Of a stretch of DNA of 64,000 nucleotides, positions 3,949-30,954 are shown in pieces. The stretch lies in the sequence record KX130864. The stretch is one strand, 5' to 3'. A model generated the notes under the pieces. That model did no database searches. It saw nothing but the letters and a program-made list of their open reading frames with translations, and had not been told where the DNA came from. This DNA is from Shigella phage SHBML-50-1. Numbering within the stretch: the first letter of the stretch is position 1; the number at the start of each line of letters is the position of its first letter. Both the position numbers and the translations under genes were made by a program.

Positions 3949-4440
3949 ATGTTTGTAGATGATGTAACACGAGCGTTTGAATCTGGTGATTTTGCTCGAC
4001 CTAACTTATTCCAAGTAGAAATTTCTTATCTTGGACAAAATTTTACGTTTCAATGTAAAGCCACTGCTTTACCAGCTGGTATTGTAGAAAAAATTCCAGT
4101 CGGATTTATGAACCGTAAAATTAACGTAGCAGGCGATCGTACATTCGATGACTGGACTGTTACAGTAATGAACGATGAGGCACATGATGCTCGCCAGAAG
4201 TTTGTTGATTGGCAAAGCATTGCTGCTGGGCAAGGGAACGAAATTACTGGTGGAAAACCAGCAGAGTATAAAAAGAGCGCTGTTGTTCGCCAATATGCTC
4301 GTGATGCTAAAACTGTAACAAAAGAAGTCGAAATTAAAGGCCTGTGGCCTACTAACGTGGGTGAACTTCAATTAGATTGGGATTCAAACAATGAAATCCA
4401 AACCTTTGAAGTAACTCTTGCTCTCGATTATTGGGAATAA
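3949..4440 (+). CDS. 19: tail tube protein gp19
   Basis: 163 aa, T4 gp19-like sequence and size; two late promoter boxes upstream. Confidence 0.95.
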   Translation: MFVDDVTRAFESGDFARPNLFQVEISYLGQNFTFQCKATALPAGIVEKIPVGFMNRKINVAGDRTFDDWTVTVMNDEAHDARQKFVDWQSIAAGQGNEITGGKPAEYKKSAVVRQYARDAKTVTKEVEIKGLWPTNVGELQLDWDSNNEIQTFEVTLALDYWE

Positions 4441-4446
4441 AATGAA

Positions 4447-6097
<1,651 letters not shown>

Positions 6098-24719: not shown

Positions 24720-24722
24720 CAA

Positions 24723-24742
24723 TGGGGACCGAAAGGTCCCCA
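24723..24742. terminator. bidirectional terminator between gene 54 (+) and the alt region (-)
   Basis: TGGGGACC-GAAA-GGTCCCCA followed by TTTTTATTT. Confidence 0.6.
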
Positions 24743-24747
24743 TATTT

Positions 24748-25038
24748 TTATTTACGGAATGAAATAAAAGCAGCAACTGAAGCAACTAAACTGTCTTCAA
24801 TATAAACTTCAATTTTTACCGGAGCTTCTGACTCAAATTTACCTGTTACTACACCTTGGAAAATGCTTTCAGTCTGCTGTGGCTTTGAAAAATTTTCAGA
24901 AGGAAAAATTCCGAACTTTTTATCTGTTCCAAAAATTTTGATAAATTCATCATAAACTGCTTCATTAAAAGCGTTATCAGCAGGAATAACGCCTTCAACT
25001 ACAAGTTCTTGACCTAAAAAGCGTAAAGAAGATTTCAT
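24748..25038 (-). CDS. hypothetical protein downstream of the Alt paralogs
   Basis: 96 aa ORF, same strand as alt. Confidence 0.6.
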   Translation of the reverse strand: MKSSLRFLGQELVVEGVIPADNAFNEAVYDEFIKIFGTDKKFGIFPSENFSKPQQTESIFQGVVTGKFESEAPVKIEVYIEDSLVASVAAFISFRK

Positions 25039-25098
25039 TTTGTGTTCCTCATGTTATGTCAGTAAGATTACTATAACACAACACGAGGGACTTGTAAA

Positions 25099-27156
25099 CT
25101 ACATCTTGAACTTTTTAGACATTCCGTTGATGTTAACCAAAGAAGCCAAGATTTGAGAAACTTCGTTTTCCTCTTCTTTTGATTCTTCTACGAGGAATTG
25201 ATTAAACCCAGCCATTGGACGAACTTCGCCAGTTTCCATTAGATGATCGCCATCATATACCGATTCTTCTAATTGTTCAGAAGGAGGAACGATTGTGCCT
25301 TCGATTAGATACTTGTTATAAGCAGTTTCTTTCATAAAGTAAGTACTTACTTTATTAATCTTCAGTAAAATTCCACGTGGTAGAATAACTTCAGCTTCTG
25401 ATGGAAATCCTGATAAATGACCTGGAACGATAACTTTGATTCGCTCAGCTCCTTTAATTACCATACCCACGCTAGTTTCAGCATCTTCATTAGCATATGT
25501 AGAATGACTACCCATATGCATCAAATCTTCTGCATCAATGGAACCTTCTCCTTCACCAGAAAATACTGCGCCGGAATCATCTAGAGCCATATAGTTTTTA
25601 CCATGCTCACCGAAGATATTTGGTTTAAGCGATGTTGATACGAAGTTCTTGAAATAGAACATTTTATTTTCAATGTTATGACGCAAAGTTTTAAAGGTAA
25701 CTTCTTGCCCACGATAAAGAGTAGTTCCTGGAGGAAGAACTGAACCTTTAGCAAATGCAGAATCCAACGTCTCGATGTGTTTAATAGCTCGTTCCATATA
25801 TTCTTCACGGGTAGAATCAGGTTTACCTAAAAGGAACGAGTTCATTTCAACATATGAATCTGCACAATAATCTTCAATTACATCAGACTCAGCCTGAGTT
25901 AATCCTTTTGGAGTTACTTCAGTGCTTGCGTATTCATATGCCTGAGCGGCAGATTCATTAATCAATTTATAAATGCCATTCATGACAAATTGAATAATAG
26001 CTGTCTTTTCATCTGGTGTAGCTTTAGAACCTTTAACTAAATCATTGATAATTTTCTTAATAACATCAAAGCTATTAGAAATATTAATGTCAGCAAGATC
26101 GCTTAAAATTTTATCAGTTTTATAATCAAAGAATTCTTTATTCTTTAAATATTCTTGAGAACCTTGATATGTTATATCGCTCTGCAACTTGATAGATGGA
26201 TCACGTAAACGTGCATGGGCTAATGCAATATGATTTCGGAAACTTTCTAGTTCATAATCGTTAGATTTAAAACGAGAAGCACTTCTCATACCACCGATAG
26301 CTCCTTTGCTGAAGTTGGAACCAATCTGAATAACGCCAGAGTTCATCGGACCTTCTGCTTTATATACAGGAACTTTAGATTCAAACTCTTGATATTTCTT
26401 GGCAGCGAAGCTATCACCCTGAAGTGAAGCATCGACAGTAGAATATTGAGCTTGTGCTGCTAATCGACGACTAATTTTAGTTTTCTGAATAACAGCTTGA
26501 TCCGTGCGCTTATCATTTTCTAAGGCAATAGAAGCAGCAACAGCAACAGCTTTAGGAACAGCATTACCTGTTTTAACATCCACATAAACATCACCAACCT
26601 TTGATTCAACTTTTGTGAATAACTCAGTTGAAATAGGAGGTACACCTGGAATGTCTTCTAAATTGGCATTTTTACGGTAAACCATAATATATGCATACTT
26701 TTTATCATAATCCCAGATTTCCTTTAAAAGAACATATCGACCTGCTCCTTTAGTACGTACTAAACGGTCAGCAATAACTTGCATTTGACGAGCTGCGCCA
26801 TTTGTTTTACTTTTTAGTACGCGGAATAAGCATGCATCAATTTTATACTGTTTCATTGTTTGAAGAGCAGTATCAAAAACGGCATTAATGACACCAATTG
26901 GATTTCCACCTAAGTTTTTAAGTTTAACTAATGATAGTTTCTCATTGACACCTATCATTACGATATGCATCATTTTATCGCCTGGCTTAACGTTTTTATT
27001 TGTATCACCACCAGAGGTGTATGTACAAAATCTAAATCCAGGAAGCACACTTTCTTCGCCGGCTTGAATAGCAAAAATTTGAGGTATTTTATGCTTAGGA
27101 TTTAAGTTAACAACCGGCGCCGAAGCGCCGTCAAATAATTCTGTAATAAGTTCCAT
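25099..27156 (-). CDS. Alt-like mono-ADP-ribosyltransferase paralog (downstream copy)
   Basis: 685 aa; N-terminal ~230 aa and C-terminal ~200 aa similar to the adjacent Alt; R (YRGQ), S-T-S (FVSTSL) and E (SEAEVILPRG) ART motifs present; central region divergent. Confidence 0.85.
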   Translation of the reverse strand: MELITELFDGASAPVVNLNPKHKIPQIFAIQAGEESVLPGFRFCTYTSGGDTNKNVKPGDKMMHIVMIGVNEKLSLVKLKNLGGNPIGVINAVFDTALQTMKQYKIDACLFRVLKSKTNGAARQMQVIADRLVRTKGAGRYVLLKEIWDYDKKYAYIMVYRKNANLEDIPGVPPISTELFTKVESKVGDVYVDVKTGNAVPKAVAVAASIALENDKRTDQAVIQKTKISRRLAAQAQYSTVDASLQGDSFAAKKYQEFESKVPVYKAEGPMNSGVIQIGSNFSKGAIGGMRSASRFKSNDYELESFRNHIALAHARLRDPSIKLQSDITYQGSQEYLKNKEFFDYKTDKILSDLADINISNSFDVIKKIINDLVKGSKATPDEKTAIIQFVMNGIYKLINESAAQAYEYASTEVTPKGLTQAESDVIEDYCADSYVEMNSFLLGKPDSTREEYMERAIKHIETLDSAFAKGSVLPPGTTLYRGQEVTFKTLRHNIENKMFYFKNFVSTSLKPNIFGEHGKNYMALDDSGAVFSGEGEGSIDAEDLMHMGSHSTYANEDAETSVGMVIKGAERIKVIVPGHLSGFPSEAEVILPRGILLKINKVSTYFMKETAYNKYLIEGTIVPPSEQLEESVYDGDHLMETGEVRPMAGFNQFLVEESKEEENEVSQILASLVNINGMSKKFKM

Positions 27157-27159
27157 GAT

Positions 27160-29253
27160 TTATCCTTGAACGAACTTGTAAGGCATGTTTGTAATATCTA
27201 TGCAAGACGCAATAATTCCAAGAGATGATTCTACTTTTTGTTTAACATTTGATGAAACAAATGATGCAAAGTCAACTCTGTCTTCTATTTCAATATCACC
27301 TGTCATTGCAACTACTTCGCCGGTTTCCATTAGACGGTCACCGTCATAAATTACTGATTCGGTGAGTTCTTCCGTAGTCATAACTTCAGCTTGAATGAGT
27401 TTTGTATTATTAGATGTTGTTCCGTCATTATTAGAAGCATCAGTTATTTTATTAACTTTGACCATCAATCCGCGTGGTAGAATAACTTCAGCTTCTGTTG
27501 CTATTCCGAGACTTCCTGGATATACAACATTAACTTTATGAGCTCCATCAATTGCCCATCCTATTTGAACTTTAACGTATTCAGGATTTTCTTTATACGC
27601 TCTTATTTCGTTTGGATTAATAGTTATTCCTTCTTCATTTTTATCAACTGTCAATTCATTACGAGCTTCTGGTTCTAAAAGACCAATACCAGCATGCGTA
27701 ATTCCAAAACGTCCAAAAATGATAGGAGTTAAAGAAGTAGATACAAAATTTCTGAAATAGAATACTTTATTTTTAACTAATGCTTCGTATATAGGAGCAG
27801 TCATGCTTTGAGCACGATAAACTGTAATGCCTTCTGGTATACGGTCACCGTTTTCAAAAGCTGAATCTAAGTTATTTATAGCAGATTCAATTTCTTTTTC
27901 ACTCATTACATCATATCGTTCTGGATTGTAACGACCCAAAAGAAGATTATTGATGTCAGTATATCCTGATCCACAATACTCTCTAATGCCGCGCTTTTGT
28001 GATGGAGTATATTTAGAACCATCACGGGCAATAGTAATATCAATCATTGGACCTGCACCAATTCCAGAAAAACTATAAATCATTCTTTTGAGGAATTTAG
28101 TTTTTGCTGCGTTCCAGGAATTTTTAGTCATTTCTTCCCAGACTTCATCTGGCTGCCCTTTACGAGTTTTATTATGTTTATCAAGCCAATTATCTTTATA
28201 TTCTTCAAAGAGTTGATTAACAGCTGCTGCGTATTTCTCTAAACATTTTATTGAAGTAGTTGGTTCATTTTTAATCGCATTAAGAATTACATCTTTAATT
28301 TTTTCTGAAACTTCATCAACCTCACTTTTTGAAAAGAATTTATAGTCATAGTGAAGTTCATCTGCAGTTCCTTCGGCAATAATTTTTGCTGCCTTAGTTT
28401 TAGAAGCTAATGAATTAATTCCAAGCTTCATTTCTTCTGCTTCGGGAATTAAAGGAGCGGTAGCAGGTTTATTAAAATTAGCTGCTGTAGATTCATACTT
28501 CTGGAATAATTCACTTTCAAATCTAGAAGATTCCAATGATTGACTTTGCGCAATTGCTCTACGGGAAATTTTAACTTTAACGATTACAGCTTGGTCAGAA
28601 CGTTTATCATTTTCTTGTGCAATAGATGCTGCAATTGCCTCATTTTTAGTTACTTGAGCTCCAGTATCTTTATTGATATAAACATCACCAACCTTCGATT
28701 CAACTTTAGTAAAGAGCTCGGTACTAATTTCAGGAACTCCTGGAATGTCTTCTAATGATACGTTTTTGCGATGTATAAGAATATATGCATACTTTTTATC
28801 GTAATCCCAGAGTTCCTTAAGAAGGACGTATCTGCCACCTGAACGACTACGGATAAGTCTATCAGCAATAACTTGAATTTGTCGAGCTTGGCCAGCAGTT
28901 TTAGACTTAAGAATACGAAGCATACAAGCATCAATTTTATATTGACGCATTGTTTGCATTGCAACAGTAAAAACTGAATTGATATAATTAATTGGGCTTG
29001 GACCAAGACCTTTTAATTTAGCAATTGAACCTTTAGCAGTTAATGTAAAAGGAACAATATGCATCATTTTATCGCCCATCTTTAAATCACGATTAGTATC
29101 ACCTCCAGATGTATAGGTACATAAACGAAAGCCTGGTTGTTCAATTGCATCATCAACATGAACTGAAAAAATTTGTGGTATTTTCTTCTTTGGATTTAAG
29201 TTTGTAATCGGAAGAGTAGTATCTTCGTCAAATAATTCTGTAATGAGTTCCAT
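27160..29253 (-). CDS. alt: Alt ADP-ribosyltransferase (packaged RNA polymerase-modifying enzyme)
   Basis: 697 aa from the second ATG (MELITELFDEDTTLP...); R (YRAQ), STS (FVSTSL), E (TEAEVILPRG) motifs; late promoter box upstream on the minus strand. Confidence 0.9.
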   Translation of the reverse strand: MELITELFDEDTTLPITNLNPKKKIPQIFSVHVDDAIEQPGFRLCTYTSGGDTNRDLKMGDKMMHIVPFTLTAKGSIAKLKGLGPSPINYINSVFTVAMQTMRQYKIDACMLRILKSKTAGQARQIQVIADRLIRSRSGGRYVLLKELWDYDKKYAYILIHRKNVSLEDIPGVPEISTELFTKVESKVGDVYINKDTGAQVTKNEAIAASIAQENDKRSDQAVIVKVKISRRAIAQSQSLESSRFESELFQKYESTAANFNKPATAPLIPEAEEMKLGINSLASKTKAAKIIAEGTADELHYDYKFFSKSEVDEVSEKIKDVILNAIKNEPTTSIKCLEKYAAAVNQLFEEYKDNWLDKHNKTRKGQPDEVWEEMTKNSWNAAKTKFLKRMIYSFSGIGAGPMIDITIARDGSKYTPSQKRGIREYCGSGYTDINNLLLGRYNPERYDVMSEKEIESAINNLDSAFENGDRIPEGITVYRAQSMTAPIYEALVKNKVFYFRNFVSTSLTPIIFGRFGITHAGIGLLEPEARNELTVDKNEEGITINPNEIRAYKENPEYVKVQIGWAIDGAHKVNVVYPGSLGIATEAEVILPRGLMVKVNKITDASNNDGTTSNNTKLIQAEVMTTEELTESVIYDGDRLMETGEVVAMTGDIEIEDRVDFASFVSSNVKQKVESSLGIIASCIDITNMPYKFVQG

Positions 29254-29276
29254 CATATCCTCTCTAGTGTTTATTC

Positions 29277-29284
29277 TATTTATA
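29277..29284 (-). promoter_or_regulatory. late promoter box upstream of alt
   Basis: Minus strand reads TTTTATAAATAGAAT about 20 nt before the alt ATG. Confidence 0.55.
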
Positions 29285-29289
29285 AAATT

Positions 29290-29307
29290 AAAGGCCCGAA
29301 GGCCTTT
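29290..29307 (-). terminator. hairpin between the small ORF after ligase and the alt promoter
   Basis: AAAGGCC-CGAA-GGCCTTT. Confidence 0.5.
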
Positions 29308-29494
29308 AATAATCTATTGGTAAGAGAGTACGATATATTTCAAACTTTGGACCTTTTTCATAGGCATCAAATGTTTCTGTGAATTTATTATAAGCATATG
29401 CATCTACAAATTCGAGAATGACTTGTGATACAGAAGTAGAAACATCTCCACCTTCTTTTTGAGCAATGACAATTGTTTCTAAGTAAGCTTTCAT
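29306..29494 (-). CDS. small hypothetical protein between ligase and alt
   Basis: 62 aa ORF whose start overlaps the gene 30 stop. Confidence 0.55.
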   Translation of the reverse strand: MKAYLETIVIAQKEGGDVSTSVSQVILEFVDAYAYNKFTETFDAYEKGPKFEIYRTLLPIDY

Positions 29495-30954
29495 AGACCA
29501 GTTACCTCATGAAAATCGCCAAATACATCCTCGAATGTATTAGCTTTAGTTTTATCTTCACGTAAACGAATCGCAATCGGAAGAAATAATTTAACGTAAT
29601 CGGTGCGGCCATCAGATTTTAACCAACCATTGCATTCGCACTCTAGAATTTTTCCAATATAATAATTTTGGTTTTCCATAATGCGAGTACGGTCAAGTTC
29701 ATGCGATTTTACACCGGCTTTATCTTTTAAGCCTGAACCAGCATTTACTTTAATTTTTCCACACTCTGATTCAAGAATAAATCCACCCGCTTTAGTAGGG
29801 TCTTTACGGTGAGGATAAATTCCTACAATTTTTAAATCAACATCAATTACTTCTTTAAATTTATAAAGATTTTTTGAACGAGCATTTTCCCATAATCCAT
29901 CGATATTTTTGAGAATAATACCTTCAAGACCTTGGTCAATATACTTTTTATAAATTACCTTAGCTTCATCTAGGTTATTTACTACCTGGTTTTCAATTAA
30001 AATTACTTTATCATATCCTGATGTCATTTGTTCTAGTTTAGAAAAACGTACATCATATTTTAAACGAAACGCCGGAAGACCGTATATTTCTACCAACGGG
30101 ACATAATCCCAAACCTGAAACTTCATGCATTGAGCTTCTTTTTCTGAAATAGTTCCCTTTAAAGATTTATTGGCGATGCCATTAGATGCAGTACGTGATT
30201 CAGCTACTTCGGCGAATTCTTTAGCTTTACTAATTTCAGGATAAGCATCAAAAAGAAAATCTAGGCCTTCTGGCTCTTTTTTAACTTGCTCATGGTATAC
30301 CAATTCGCCATCAATTAACACACCTTCTGGATGAATCTGGCGGGCTTCAGCAGTCATTTTGATTAACTCTTCCTTAAGAAGATCTAATCCTAGATATTCA
30401 TTACCCGCTCGTGATAAAAGACGAACATCATCTAATTCATCGCCTCGGACTTCAGCAAAACACCGGGCTCCATCTGCTTTTAACTGCGCAAAGGCTGGAA
30501 ACTTGATATTCTTACTAATGCCCTTTTCATCATAAGAACTTGCCAGCATTTGAGGTTGTTCAGGAATTAAACCTGGCCAAACTTTATTTGCAATAGATAC
30601 TGAAGCACCGCATTCAAGGTCTCGCATCATCACTCGACGCAAAACTTCAACATCATCTTTTTTACCATCAGTGATATATCCAGTTAATTCCTCAATTGCA
30701 GCATTTCCAGTCAATTTCCGAGTAGCTAACGTGAATTCAATGAAATCAAGCATATCGGTAATGGTCAGCATTCCAAAACTCTGGGTAGCAATACCAGGTT
30801 TAGGCCATTTCTTGATATAATACTGTAACCCACGAGAATAAGTCAGACGATATACTCGTTTAAGCAATTCATTATCTTTATTCTTTTCAAGAATTGCTTG
30901 CTTCTGCTTAGTTGAACCAATAGATGCTATTTCGTTTAGAATTTTAAGAATCAT
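29491..30954 (-). CDS. 30: ATP-dependent DNA ligase gp30
   Basis: 487 aa; KADGAR adenylation motif; T4 DNA ligase-like sequence and size. Confidence 0.95.
   Translation of the reverse strand: MILKILNEIASIGSTKQKQAILEKNKDNELLKRVYRLTYSRGLQYYIKKWPKPGIATQSFGMLTITDMLDFIEFTLATRKLTGNAAIEELTGYITDGKKDDVEVLRRVMMRDLECGASVSIANKVWPGLIPEQPQMLASSYDEKGISKNIKFPAFAQLKADGARCFAEVRGDELDDVRLLSRAGNEYLGLDLLKEELIKMTAEARQIHPEGVLIDGELVYHEQVKKEPEGLDFLFDAYPEISKAKEFAEVAESRTASNGIANKSLKGTISEKEAQCMKFQVWDYVPLVEIYGLPAFRLKYDVRFSKLEQMTSGYDKVILIENQVVNNLDEAKVIYKKYIDQGLEGIILKNIDGLWENARSKNLYKFKEVIDVDLKIVGIYPHRKDPTKAGGFILESECGKIKVNAGSGLKDKAGVKSHELDRTRIMENQNYYIGKILECECNGWLKSDGRTDYVKLFLPIAIRLREDKTKANTFEDVFGDFHEVTGL

Follow-up and report, generated by a model that had tools for sequence, protein, structure and literature searches.

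The 64,000-nucleotide stretch of Shigella phage SHBML-50-1 analysed here (sequence record KX130864; hereafter the window) is part of a Tequatrovirus (T4-like phage) genome and carries, on its minus strand, two adjacent genes for Alt-like ADP-ribosyltransferases (ARTs). An initial annotation, made from the letters of the sequence without database searches, had described them as a duplicated enzyme with diversified middle domains, and the two open reading frames (ORFs) lie where it had placed them, at 25099-27156 (685 amino acids) and 27160-29256 (698 amino acids). We refer to the upstream ORF as Alt-A and to the downstream ORF as Alt-B. The gene order, which runs from gene 30 through alt.1, Alt-A and Alt-B to alt.-3, is that of T4, and the plus-strand genes 54, 48 and 29 converge on the locus from beyond alt.-3 (Table 1). 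Over 4.85 kb, the locus region matches Citrobacter phage PhiZZ6 at 99.3% identity and several hundred phages of Escherichia and Shigella at about 97%. For Alt-A, the second ATG (29253), giving a protein of 697 amino acids, is more likely to be the real start, since its distance from the GAGAGGA ribosome-binding site is more favourable and since T4 Alt begins MELITE. A search of the window for a third Alt-like or Mod-like gene found none.

Both proteins belong to the Alt family, as the initial annotation had proposed. The PHROG profile phrog_802 (“Alt-like RNA polymerase ADP-ribosyltransferase”) matches the two of them from end to end (E values, 1e-256 and 2e-273), and the Pfam family PF03496 (ADPrib_exo_Tox) recognizes Alt-B with 72 bits and Alt-A with 130 bits against a cut-off of 23.4 (E values for the two proteins, 5e-20 and 7.5e-38); NCBIfam gave no match to either. 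Each has the full Alt architecture of N-terminal domain (N-domain), middle domain, ART domain and C-terminal tail; the Pfam assignment PF26846 for the N-domain was precomputed on close homologues. BLASTP aligns Alt-A with Alt-B at 41% identity (E value, 2e-162), and a sliding identity profile reveals how this identity is distributed: about 68% across residues 1-238, about 17%, which is background, across residues ~240-415, and about 44% across the ART domain (~417-620), inside which a second insert, at ~520-575, cannot be aligned. The C-terminal tail (YDGDxLMETGE) is partly conserved between the two proteins. The conserved N-terminal part that had been read from the ORFs is thus confirmed, and every motif quoted for it and for the C-terminal region is found in the two proteins; the picture of a conserved catalytic C-terminal region is correct for the catalytic residues but has to be amended for the second variable segment. 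The further claim, that the central ~250 residues are unrelated, holds at the level of sequence, where hhalign detected no relationship between the Alt-A-type and the Alt-B-type middle (probability, 0.9%), but the divergent centre is shorter, at ~180 residues. Moreover, AlphaFold2 predicts both middles to be all-helical, with a similar order of helices and a final helix of ~30 residues that runs into the ART domain, so that “unrelated” describes their sequences and not necessarily their architecture.

The catalytic residues are complete in both copies, as R480, S505/S507 and E587/E589 in Alt-A and as R482, S507/S509 and E587/E589 in Alt-B. When the proteins were aligned with T4 Alt, ModA and ModB, a comparison that the initial annotation had recommended, the R, S-T-S and E-x-E motifs of both fell in register with those of the T4 enzymes, and the R, S-x-S and E-x-E residues proved near-invariant among ~59 family representatives. 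Loss of the catalytic glutamate from one copy, which had been named as an observation that would speak against an enzyme pair, is not seen, because all three motifs are intact in Alt-A and Alt-B alike. The second glutamate of E-x-E aligns with E165 of ModA, and activity is lost upon the substitutions E165A in ModA and E577A in T4 Alt (PMC11404850). The RefSeq sequence of T4 Alt (L001:5455-7503) reads E574-M-E576 and has Val at residue 577, a mismatch with the published mutant that probably reflects a shift of numbering introduced by the expression construct. Tested for the ART fold, both window proteins conform to it, and a search of known structures with the Alt family profile matched ARTs only; searching by sequence, we found no solved Alt structure; Alt-A gave only weak matches to ARTs of toxins, and Alt-B gave none. 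The E-x-E motif predicts that Alt-A and Alt-B are specific for arginine.

Whether T4 carries a full-length second copy had been left in doubt; it has fragments only. In the T4 RefSeq record, alt (682 amino acids) is followed by the small ORFs alt.-1 and alt.-2, which a note in the record attributes to an ancient duplication of the beginning of alt. Residues 1-55 and 62-118 of Alt-B are near-identical to alt.-1 and alt.-2, and the PHROGs of these two ORFs match Alt-B with E values of 2e-40 and 3e-38, compared with 1e-21 and 2e-19 for Alt-A. At the DNA level, T4 has no equivalent of window positions 25119-26808, a gap of ~1.69 kb. Judging from the fragment alignment, the PHROG scores and this gap, a gene that T4 has lost survives intact as Alt-B, and alt.-1 and alt.-2 are its remnants in T4.

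Alt-A, for its part, resembles T4 Alt (UniProt P12726) in its position, between alt.1/gene 30 and alt.-3/gene 54, in its catalytic motifs, in its two cleavage motifs for the prohead protease gp21 and in its late promoter. It is at the same time a mosaic allele relative to T4 alt, different in the middle and catalytic parts. Protein identity to T4 Alt is 100% in the N-domain and 91% in the C-terminal 65 residues (the C-propeptide), as opposed to 34% in the middle domain, 65-81% in the ART core and 33% in the insert, and the high identity in substrate-facing parts by which we judged strict orthology is therefore absent. The DNA gives the same picture: the flanks are 96% identical to T4, the ART and C-terminal part is 79% identical, and window positions 28018-28446, within the Alt-A middle, have no DNA similarity to T4 L001:6277-6696. 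Alt-B is 41-42% identical to T4 Alt overall and 16-46% identical in the middle, insert and ART parts, and its middle domain has no detectable homology to the profile of the Alt-A/T4-type middle. Given these differences in sequence, the targets of Alt-A and Alt-B may differ from those of T4 Alt, such as Arg265 of the RNA polymerase alpha subunit.

The two genes are probably co-transcribed from one late promoter. A T4 late-promoter consensus, which has 20 matches in the window compared with 9.3 expected, stands ahead of Alt-A just after a terminator-like hairpin; phages G50 and OE5505 carry a “terminator” annotation at the position of this hairpin, and a conserved terminator upstream of alt was noted by Nolan et al. 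(2006). The Alt-B ATG follows the Alt-A stop codon by 3 nucleotides (nt), and no late promoter of its own was found for Alt-B at the junction, the nearest TATAAATA lying ~720 nt upstream, within Alt-A. It is this combination of a 3-nt gap, a late promoter before Alt-A and none at the junction that suggests a common transcript, whose likely end is the hairpin between alt.-3 and gene 54.

Table 1. Features of the alt locus, in window coordinates, ordered along the minus strand
Feature	Position	Strand	Remarks
gene 30, DNA ligase	29491-30954	-	
alt.1	29306-29494	-	Pfam Phage_blade, PF24647
GC-rich hairpin, terminator-like	29289-29308	-	TAAAGGCC-TTCG-GGCCTTTA, then ATTTT; overlaps the alt.1 stop codon
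T4 late-promoter consensus	29277-29284	-	TATAAATA; 21 nt upstream of the first Alt-A ATG
Alt-A	27160-29253	-	697 amino acids (698 if the start is 29256); position of T4 alt
Alt-A N-terminal alpha/beta domain	28537-29253	-	residues 1-239; AlphaFold2 predicted local distance difference test (pLDDT) ~80-93
Alt-A all-helical middle domain	28009-28536	-	residues ~240-415; AlphaFold2 pLDDT ~96
Alt-A ART catalytic domain	27376-28008	-	residues ~416-626; variable insert ~510-560
Ribosome-binding site for Alt-B	27163-27167	-	AAGGA; inside the last Alt-A codons
Alt-B	25099-27156	-	685 amino acids; intact counterpart of T4 alt.-1/alt.-2
Alt-B N-terminal alpha/beta domain	26443-27156	-	residues 1-238; Pfam PF26846 “Tevenvirinae_ADPRT” region
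Alt-B all-helical middle domain	25912-26442	-	residues ~239-415
Alt-B ART catalytic domain	25282-25911	-	residues ~416-625; low-confidence insert 519-554
Alt-B predicted C-terminal propeptide	25102-25263	-	residues 632-685 (cut after LEE-631)
alt.-3	24748-25038	-	96 amino acids; DUF5498 (PF17602); downstream neighbour of Alt-B
Bidirectional hairpin terminator between alt.-3 and gene 54	24722-24743	.	terminator annotated in G50 and OE5505

In T4, each head contains ~40 copies of Alt, a prohead-core protein injected along with the DNA (PMC9026906; PMC9958956), and mass spectrometry located the gp21 cuts at ITE-6 and LTE-619, which leave a mature protein of 68.2 kDa (PMC5694885). Motifs of the same kind occupy the same alignment positions in Alt-A (ITE-6 and LTE-632) and in Alt-B (ITE-6 and LEE-631), with predicted mature masses of 70.1 kDa and 69.2 kDa, respectively. 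Across the family, [LIV]xE is present at both T4 cut positions in 52 of 56 members, far above the conservation of other such tripeptides. We infer from these motifs that Alt-B, too, is packaged.

Among T4 relatives, the pair is common and T4 itself exceptional. About 400 phage records contain Alt-B at ≥90% identity, and of the 498 phage records matched by a query spanning the T4 deletion junction, only 91 give a contiguous match, so that the tandem pair (~400 of 498) is the majority state and the T4-type deletion a minority one. As to the first gene, the window-type Alt-A allele is found at ≥90% identity in ~317 records, and 212 have 60-80% identity, the range to which the T4 type belongs; in phages OE5505 and SH7, a T4-type upstream allele occurs together with an intact Alt-B. 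Purifying selection acts strongly on both genes, the ratio of nonsynonymous to synonymous substitution rates (dN/dS), taken over the whole gene, being 0.02-0.05 for Alt-B and 0.019 for Alt-A.

The make-up of these proteins appears modular. When the Alt-B N-domain served as the query of an exhaustive phmmer search against 1.84 billion cluster representatives, only 69 clusters were returned, nearly all of them 600-712 residues long, and an ART domain is present in 59 of the 61 that were scanned, which makes the N-domain private to Alt-like proteins. The middle region, by contrast, is hypervariable across the whole Alt family, the 61 sequences falling into 40 groups without BLAST links. Remote homology connects the Alt-B middle to a group of seven clusters (P0142 and others; hhalign probability, 95.8%; E value, 7e-9; alignment A2) and not to the Alt-A/T4 type, so that Alt proteins contain at least two unrelated middle-domain superfamilies. 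In neighbour-joining trees, which carry no support values and are indicative only, Alt-B adjoins Alt-A and T4 Alt by its N-domain and groups with other lineages by its ART domain. Finally, four hybrid proteins (P0003-P0006) switch from Alt-A-type to Alt-B-type residues, each at a different point within the N-domain. On a 109.8-kb metagenomic contig from the European Nucleotide Archive that includes both flanks (L003; gene at 4001-6061), a single hybrid gene stands between alt.1 and alt.-3; on a Logan contig (L002; gene at 4001-6061), the hybrid directly follows alt.1 and the contig ends ~30 nt past the gene. For cases known from Logan only, an assembly error is possible. Gene conversion within a retained pair was considered for P0003-P0006 and checked for P0003 and P0006; it is rejected for L003, where the single gene represents a fusion-deletion. 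The hybrids seem to have arisen by unequal crossover between the N-domain repeats, which removed one gene’s worth of DNA. The private N-domain, the varied middles, the discordant trees and the hybrids together fit a conserved delivery chassis, made of the N-domain and the propeptides, that carries an exchangeable, fast-evolving substrate-facing part.

Several known systems resemble the Alt proteins in part. The R-S-ExE signature of T4 ModA and ModB aligns column for column with those of Alt-A and Alt-B, at identities of 21% and 17% to the window ART domains; ModA and ModB, however, are early proteins of ~200 residues that consist of the ART domain only, lack the N-domain, middle domain and propeptides and are not packaged, whereas both window proteins have ~690 residues, extra domains and a late promoter. 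The C3-like and binary-toxin ARTs (Vis, C3bot, Iota/CPILE-a, VIP2 and Certhrax) are bacterial exotoxins with other delivery domains, at 14-28% identity. In the mode of delivery, there is a likeness to head-packaged phage effectors, namely the internal proteins IPI-III, tagged with a capsid targeting sequence, and MuF-fused ARTs, which share a prohead-targeting delivery module, protease trimming and injection with the DNA; Alt differs in using a T4-like-specific domain of ~240 residues and two propeptides in place of a capsid targeting sequence of 10-20 residues or a MuF domain.

On this evidence, the interpretation that we favour, with a probability of about 70%, is that Alt-A and Alt-B are paralogous Alt-type mono-ADP-ribosyltransferases that are made late, packaged, trimmed by gp21 and injected, and that probably act on different host targets. 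Specifically, both enzymes would be synthesized late in infection from the one late promoter and be incorporated into the prohead core by means of their shared N-domain and terminal propeptides; gp21 would then trim them at ITE-6 and at the LxE motif near residue 631 to ~69-70 kDa, and the mature proteins would reach the next host by being injected along with the DNA and would there move ADP-ribose from NAD+ onto arginine residues of host proteins. The N-domain, the catalytic core and the C-propeptide would thus provide delivery and chemistry, and the helical middle domain and the ART insert would set which host proteins each enzyme recognizes. Because these two non-homologous segments are the likely determinants of recognition, the pair probably widens the target range, and the data agree with the plausible suggestion of the initial annotation that a diversified middle may alter that range. 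The parts of this interpretation differ in strength: that these are late-made, packaged, trimmed and injected arginine-specific transferases is well supported by sequence and most likely, and that the two have different targets is probable. What the analysis establishes is the gene structure, the catalytic residues, the cleavage motifs, the purifying selection and the relationship to T4 alt and alt.-1/alt.-2; packaging of Alt-B and specificity for arginine are predictions, as are the different targets.

Several observations weigh against this interpretation. Either copy can be lost in nature, as the T4-type deletion and the hybrid fusions attest, so that neither is indispensable and some redundancy is possible. 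Alt-A differs from T4 Alt across the middle and catalytic parts, and the targets of the T4 enzyme are therefore not simply transferable to it. The similar helix order predicted for the two middle domains could mean that a single scaffold, non-specific in its role, has diverged rapidly into both. Lastly, in the SH7 virion proteome, which comprises 13 proteins, the upstream copy was identified by 2 peptides and the downstream copy was not detected.

The first of these points bears on the most serious competitor of the different-targets reading, since tolerance of the loss of either copy is what redundancy would entail. The paralogs would then modify essentially the same host proteins, RNA polymerase alpha for example, with the second copy serving dose or robustness and the middle being a fast-drifting spacer. 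Alt is non-essential in T4 (PMC9026906), natural genomes do without Alt-B (91 of 498 records) or with a single hybrid fusion, and the catalytic residues of the two proteins are identical, all of which is consistent with redundancy. A drifting spacer is difficult to reconcile, however, with strong purifying selection on both copies, middles included, or with middles that lack detectable homology and are accompanied by a differing ART insert; furthermore, the ART tree places Alt-B with other lineages and not with Alt-A, which points to an old, maintained divergence. We therefore regard redundancy as unlikely.

Alternatively, Alt-B may not be an injected effector at all and may instead act late in the producing cell or serve mainly as a structural component of the prohead core. 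Both roles, enzyme and core protein, have been ascribed to Alt (PMC11404850), and our literature search for the second paralog in virions found a single, shallow dataset, that of SH7, in which only the upstream copy appears. Against this stand the N-domain, ITE-6 and LxE-631, the features that mark the packaged and gp21-processed T4 Alt and that Alt-B has kept, as well as the hybrids, which show the body of Alt-B functioning at the alt position behind the N-domain of Alt-A; we consider a non-injected Alt-B improbable. That one copy is a decaying pseudogene or catalytically dead, as might be suspected from the remnant state of the second copy in T4, is refuted at the sequence level for the window genes, where both ORFs are intact, have all catalytic residues and show dN/dS values of at most 0.05, and has next to no probability left.

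Beyond two enzymes with probably different targets, it is tempting to speculate that the Alt locus is a modular effector-delivery cassette in which an N-terminal packaging domain, conserved in the lineage, and a C-terminal propeptide would enclose a “warhead” that recombination can swap, consisting of the helical targeting domain and the ART with its variable insert. Its two enzymes might then have largely non-overlapping host targets, one of them possibly directed against a host defence or toxin system and not against RNA polymerase, and neither would be equivalent to T4 Alt. We hold this extension to be possible but more doubtful than not.

The tandem alt pair as such is already known and is not a discovery of this work. 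Both genes bear the RefSeq label “Alt-like RNA polymerase ADP-ribosyltransferase” in hundreds of genomes, Nolan et al. [quoted passage not shown] In the literature that we found, no paper characterizes the second paralogue or a non-T4 allele of the first. To this, our analysis adds the purifying selection, the cleavage motifs, the apparently shared late promoter, the Alt-A allele, the hybrids and the hypervariable middle. T4, the reference for injected phage ADP-ribosyltransferases, carries a minority, degraded version of the locus, and two Alt enzymes are encoded, and perhaps also delivered, by most of its relatives, many with a first allele that differs from T4’s in the substrate-facing parts; for these reasons, conclusions about Alt targets drawn from T4 may not transfer to phages used in therapy or held in collections. 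The second paralog is a strongly conserved candidate effector that is open to direct study.

Some minor observations concern the N-domain and the surroundings of the pair. The predicted fold of the N-domain resembles GNAT acetyltransferases, which raises the possibility of a ligand-binding or enzymatic role of its own; sequence comparison gave no confirmation of this signal, and we leave it as a lead. No tRNAs were found in the window, and scans for sigma-70 promoters and for terminators showed no enrichment over shuffles. The neighbours alt.1 (Phage_blade) and alt.-3 (DUF5498) both belong to Pfam families of unknown function, and both stay at the locus in all three of its states, that is, with the pair, with the T4 deletion and with the hybrid. 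Between the Alt-B stop codon and alt.-3, at 25070-25098 on the minus strand, lies a site that resembles an early, sigma-70-type promoter (TTTACA and TATAGT separated by 17 nt, with an upstream TG), which suggests that alt.-3 may also be expressed early, independently of the late alt transcript.

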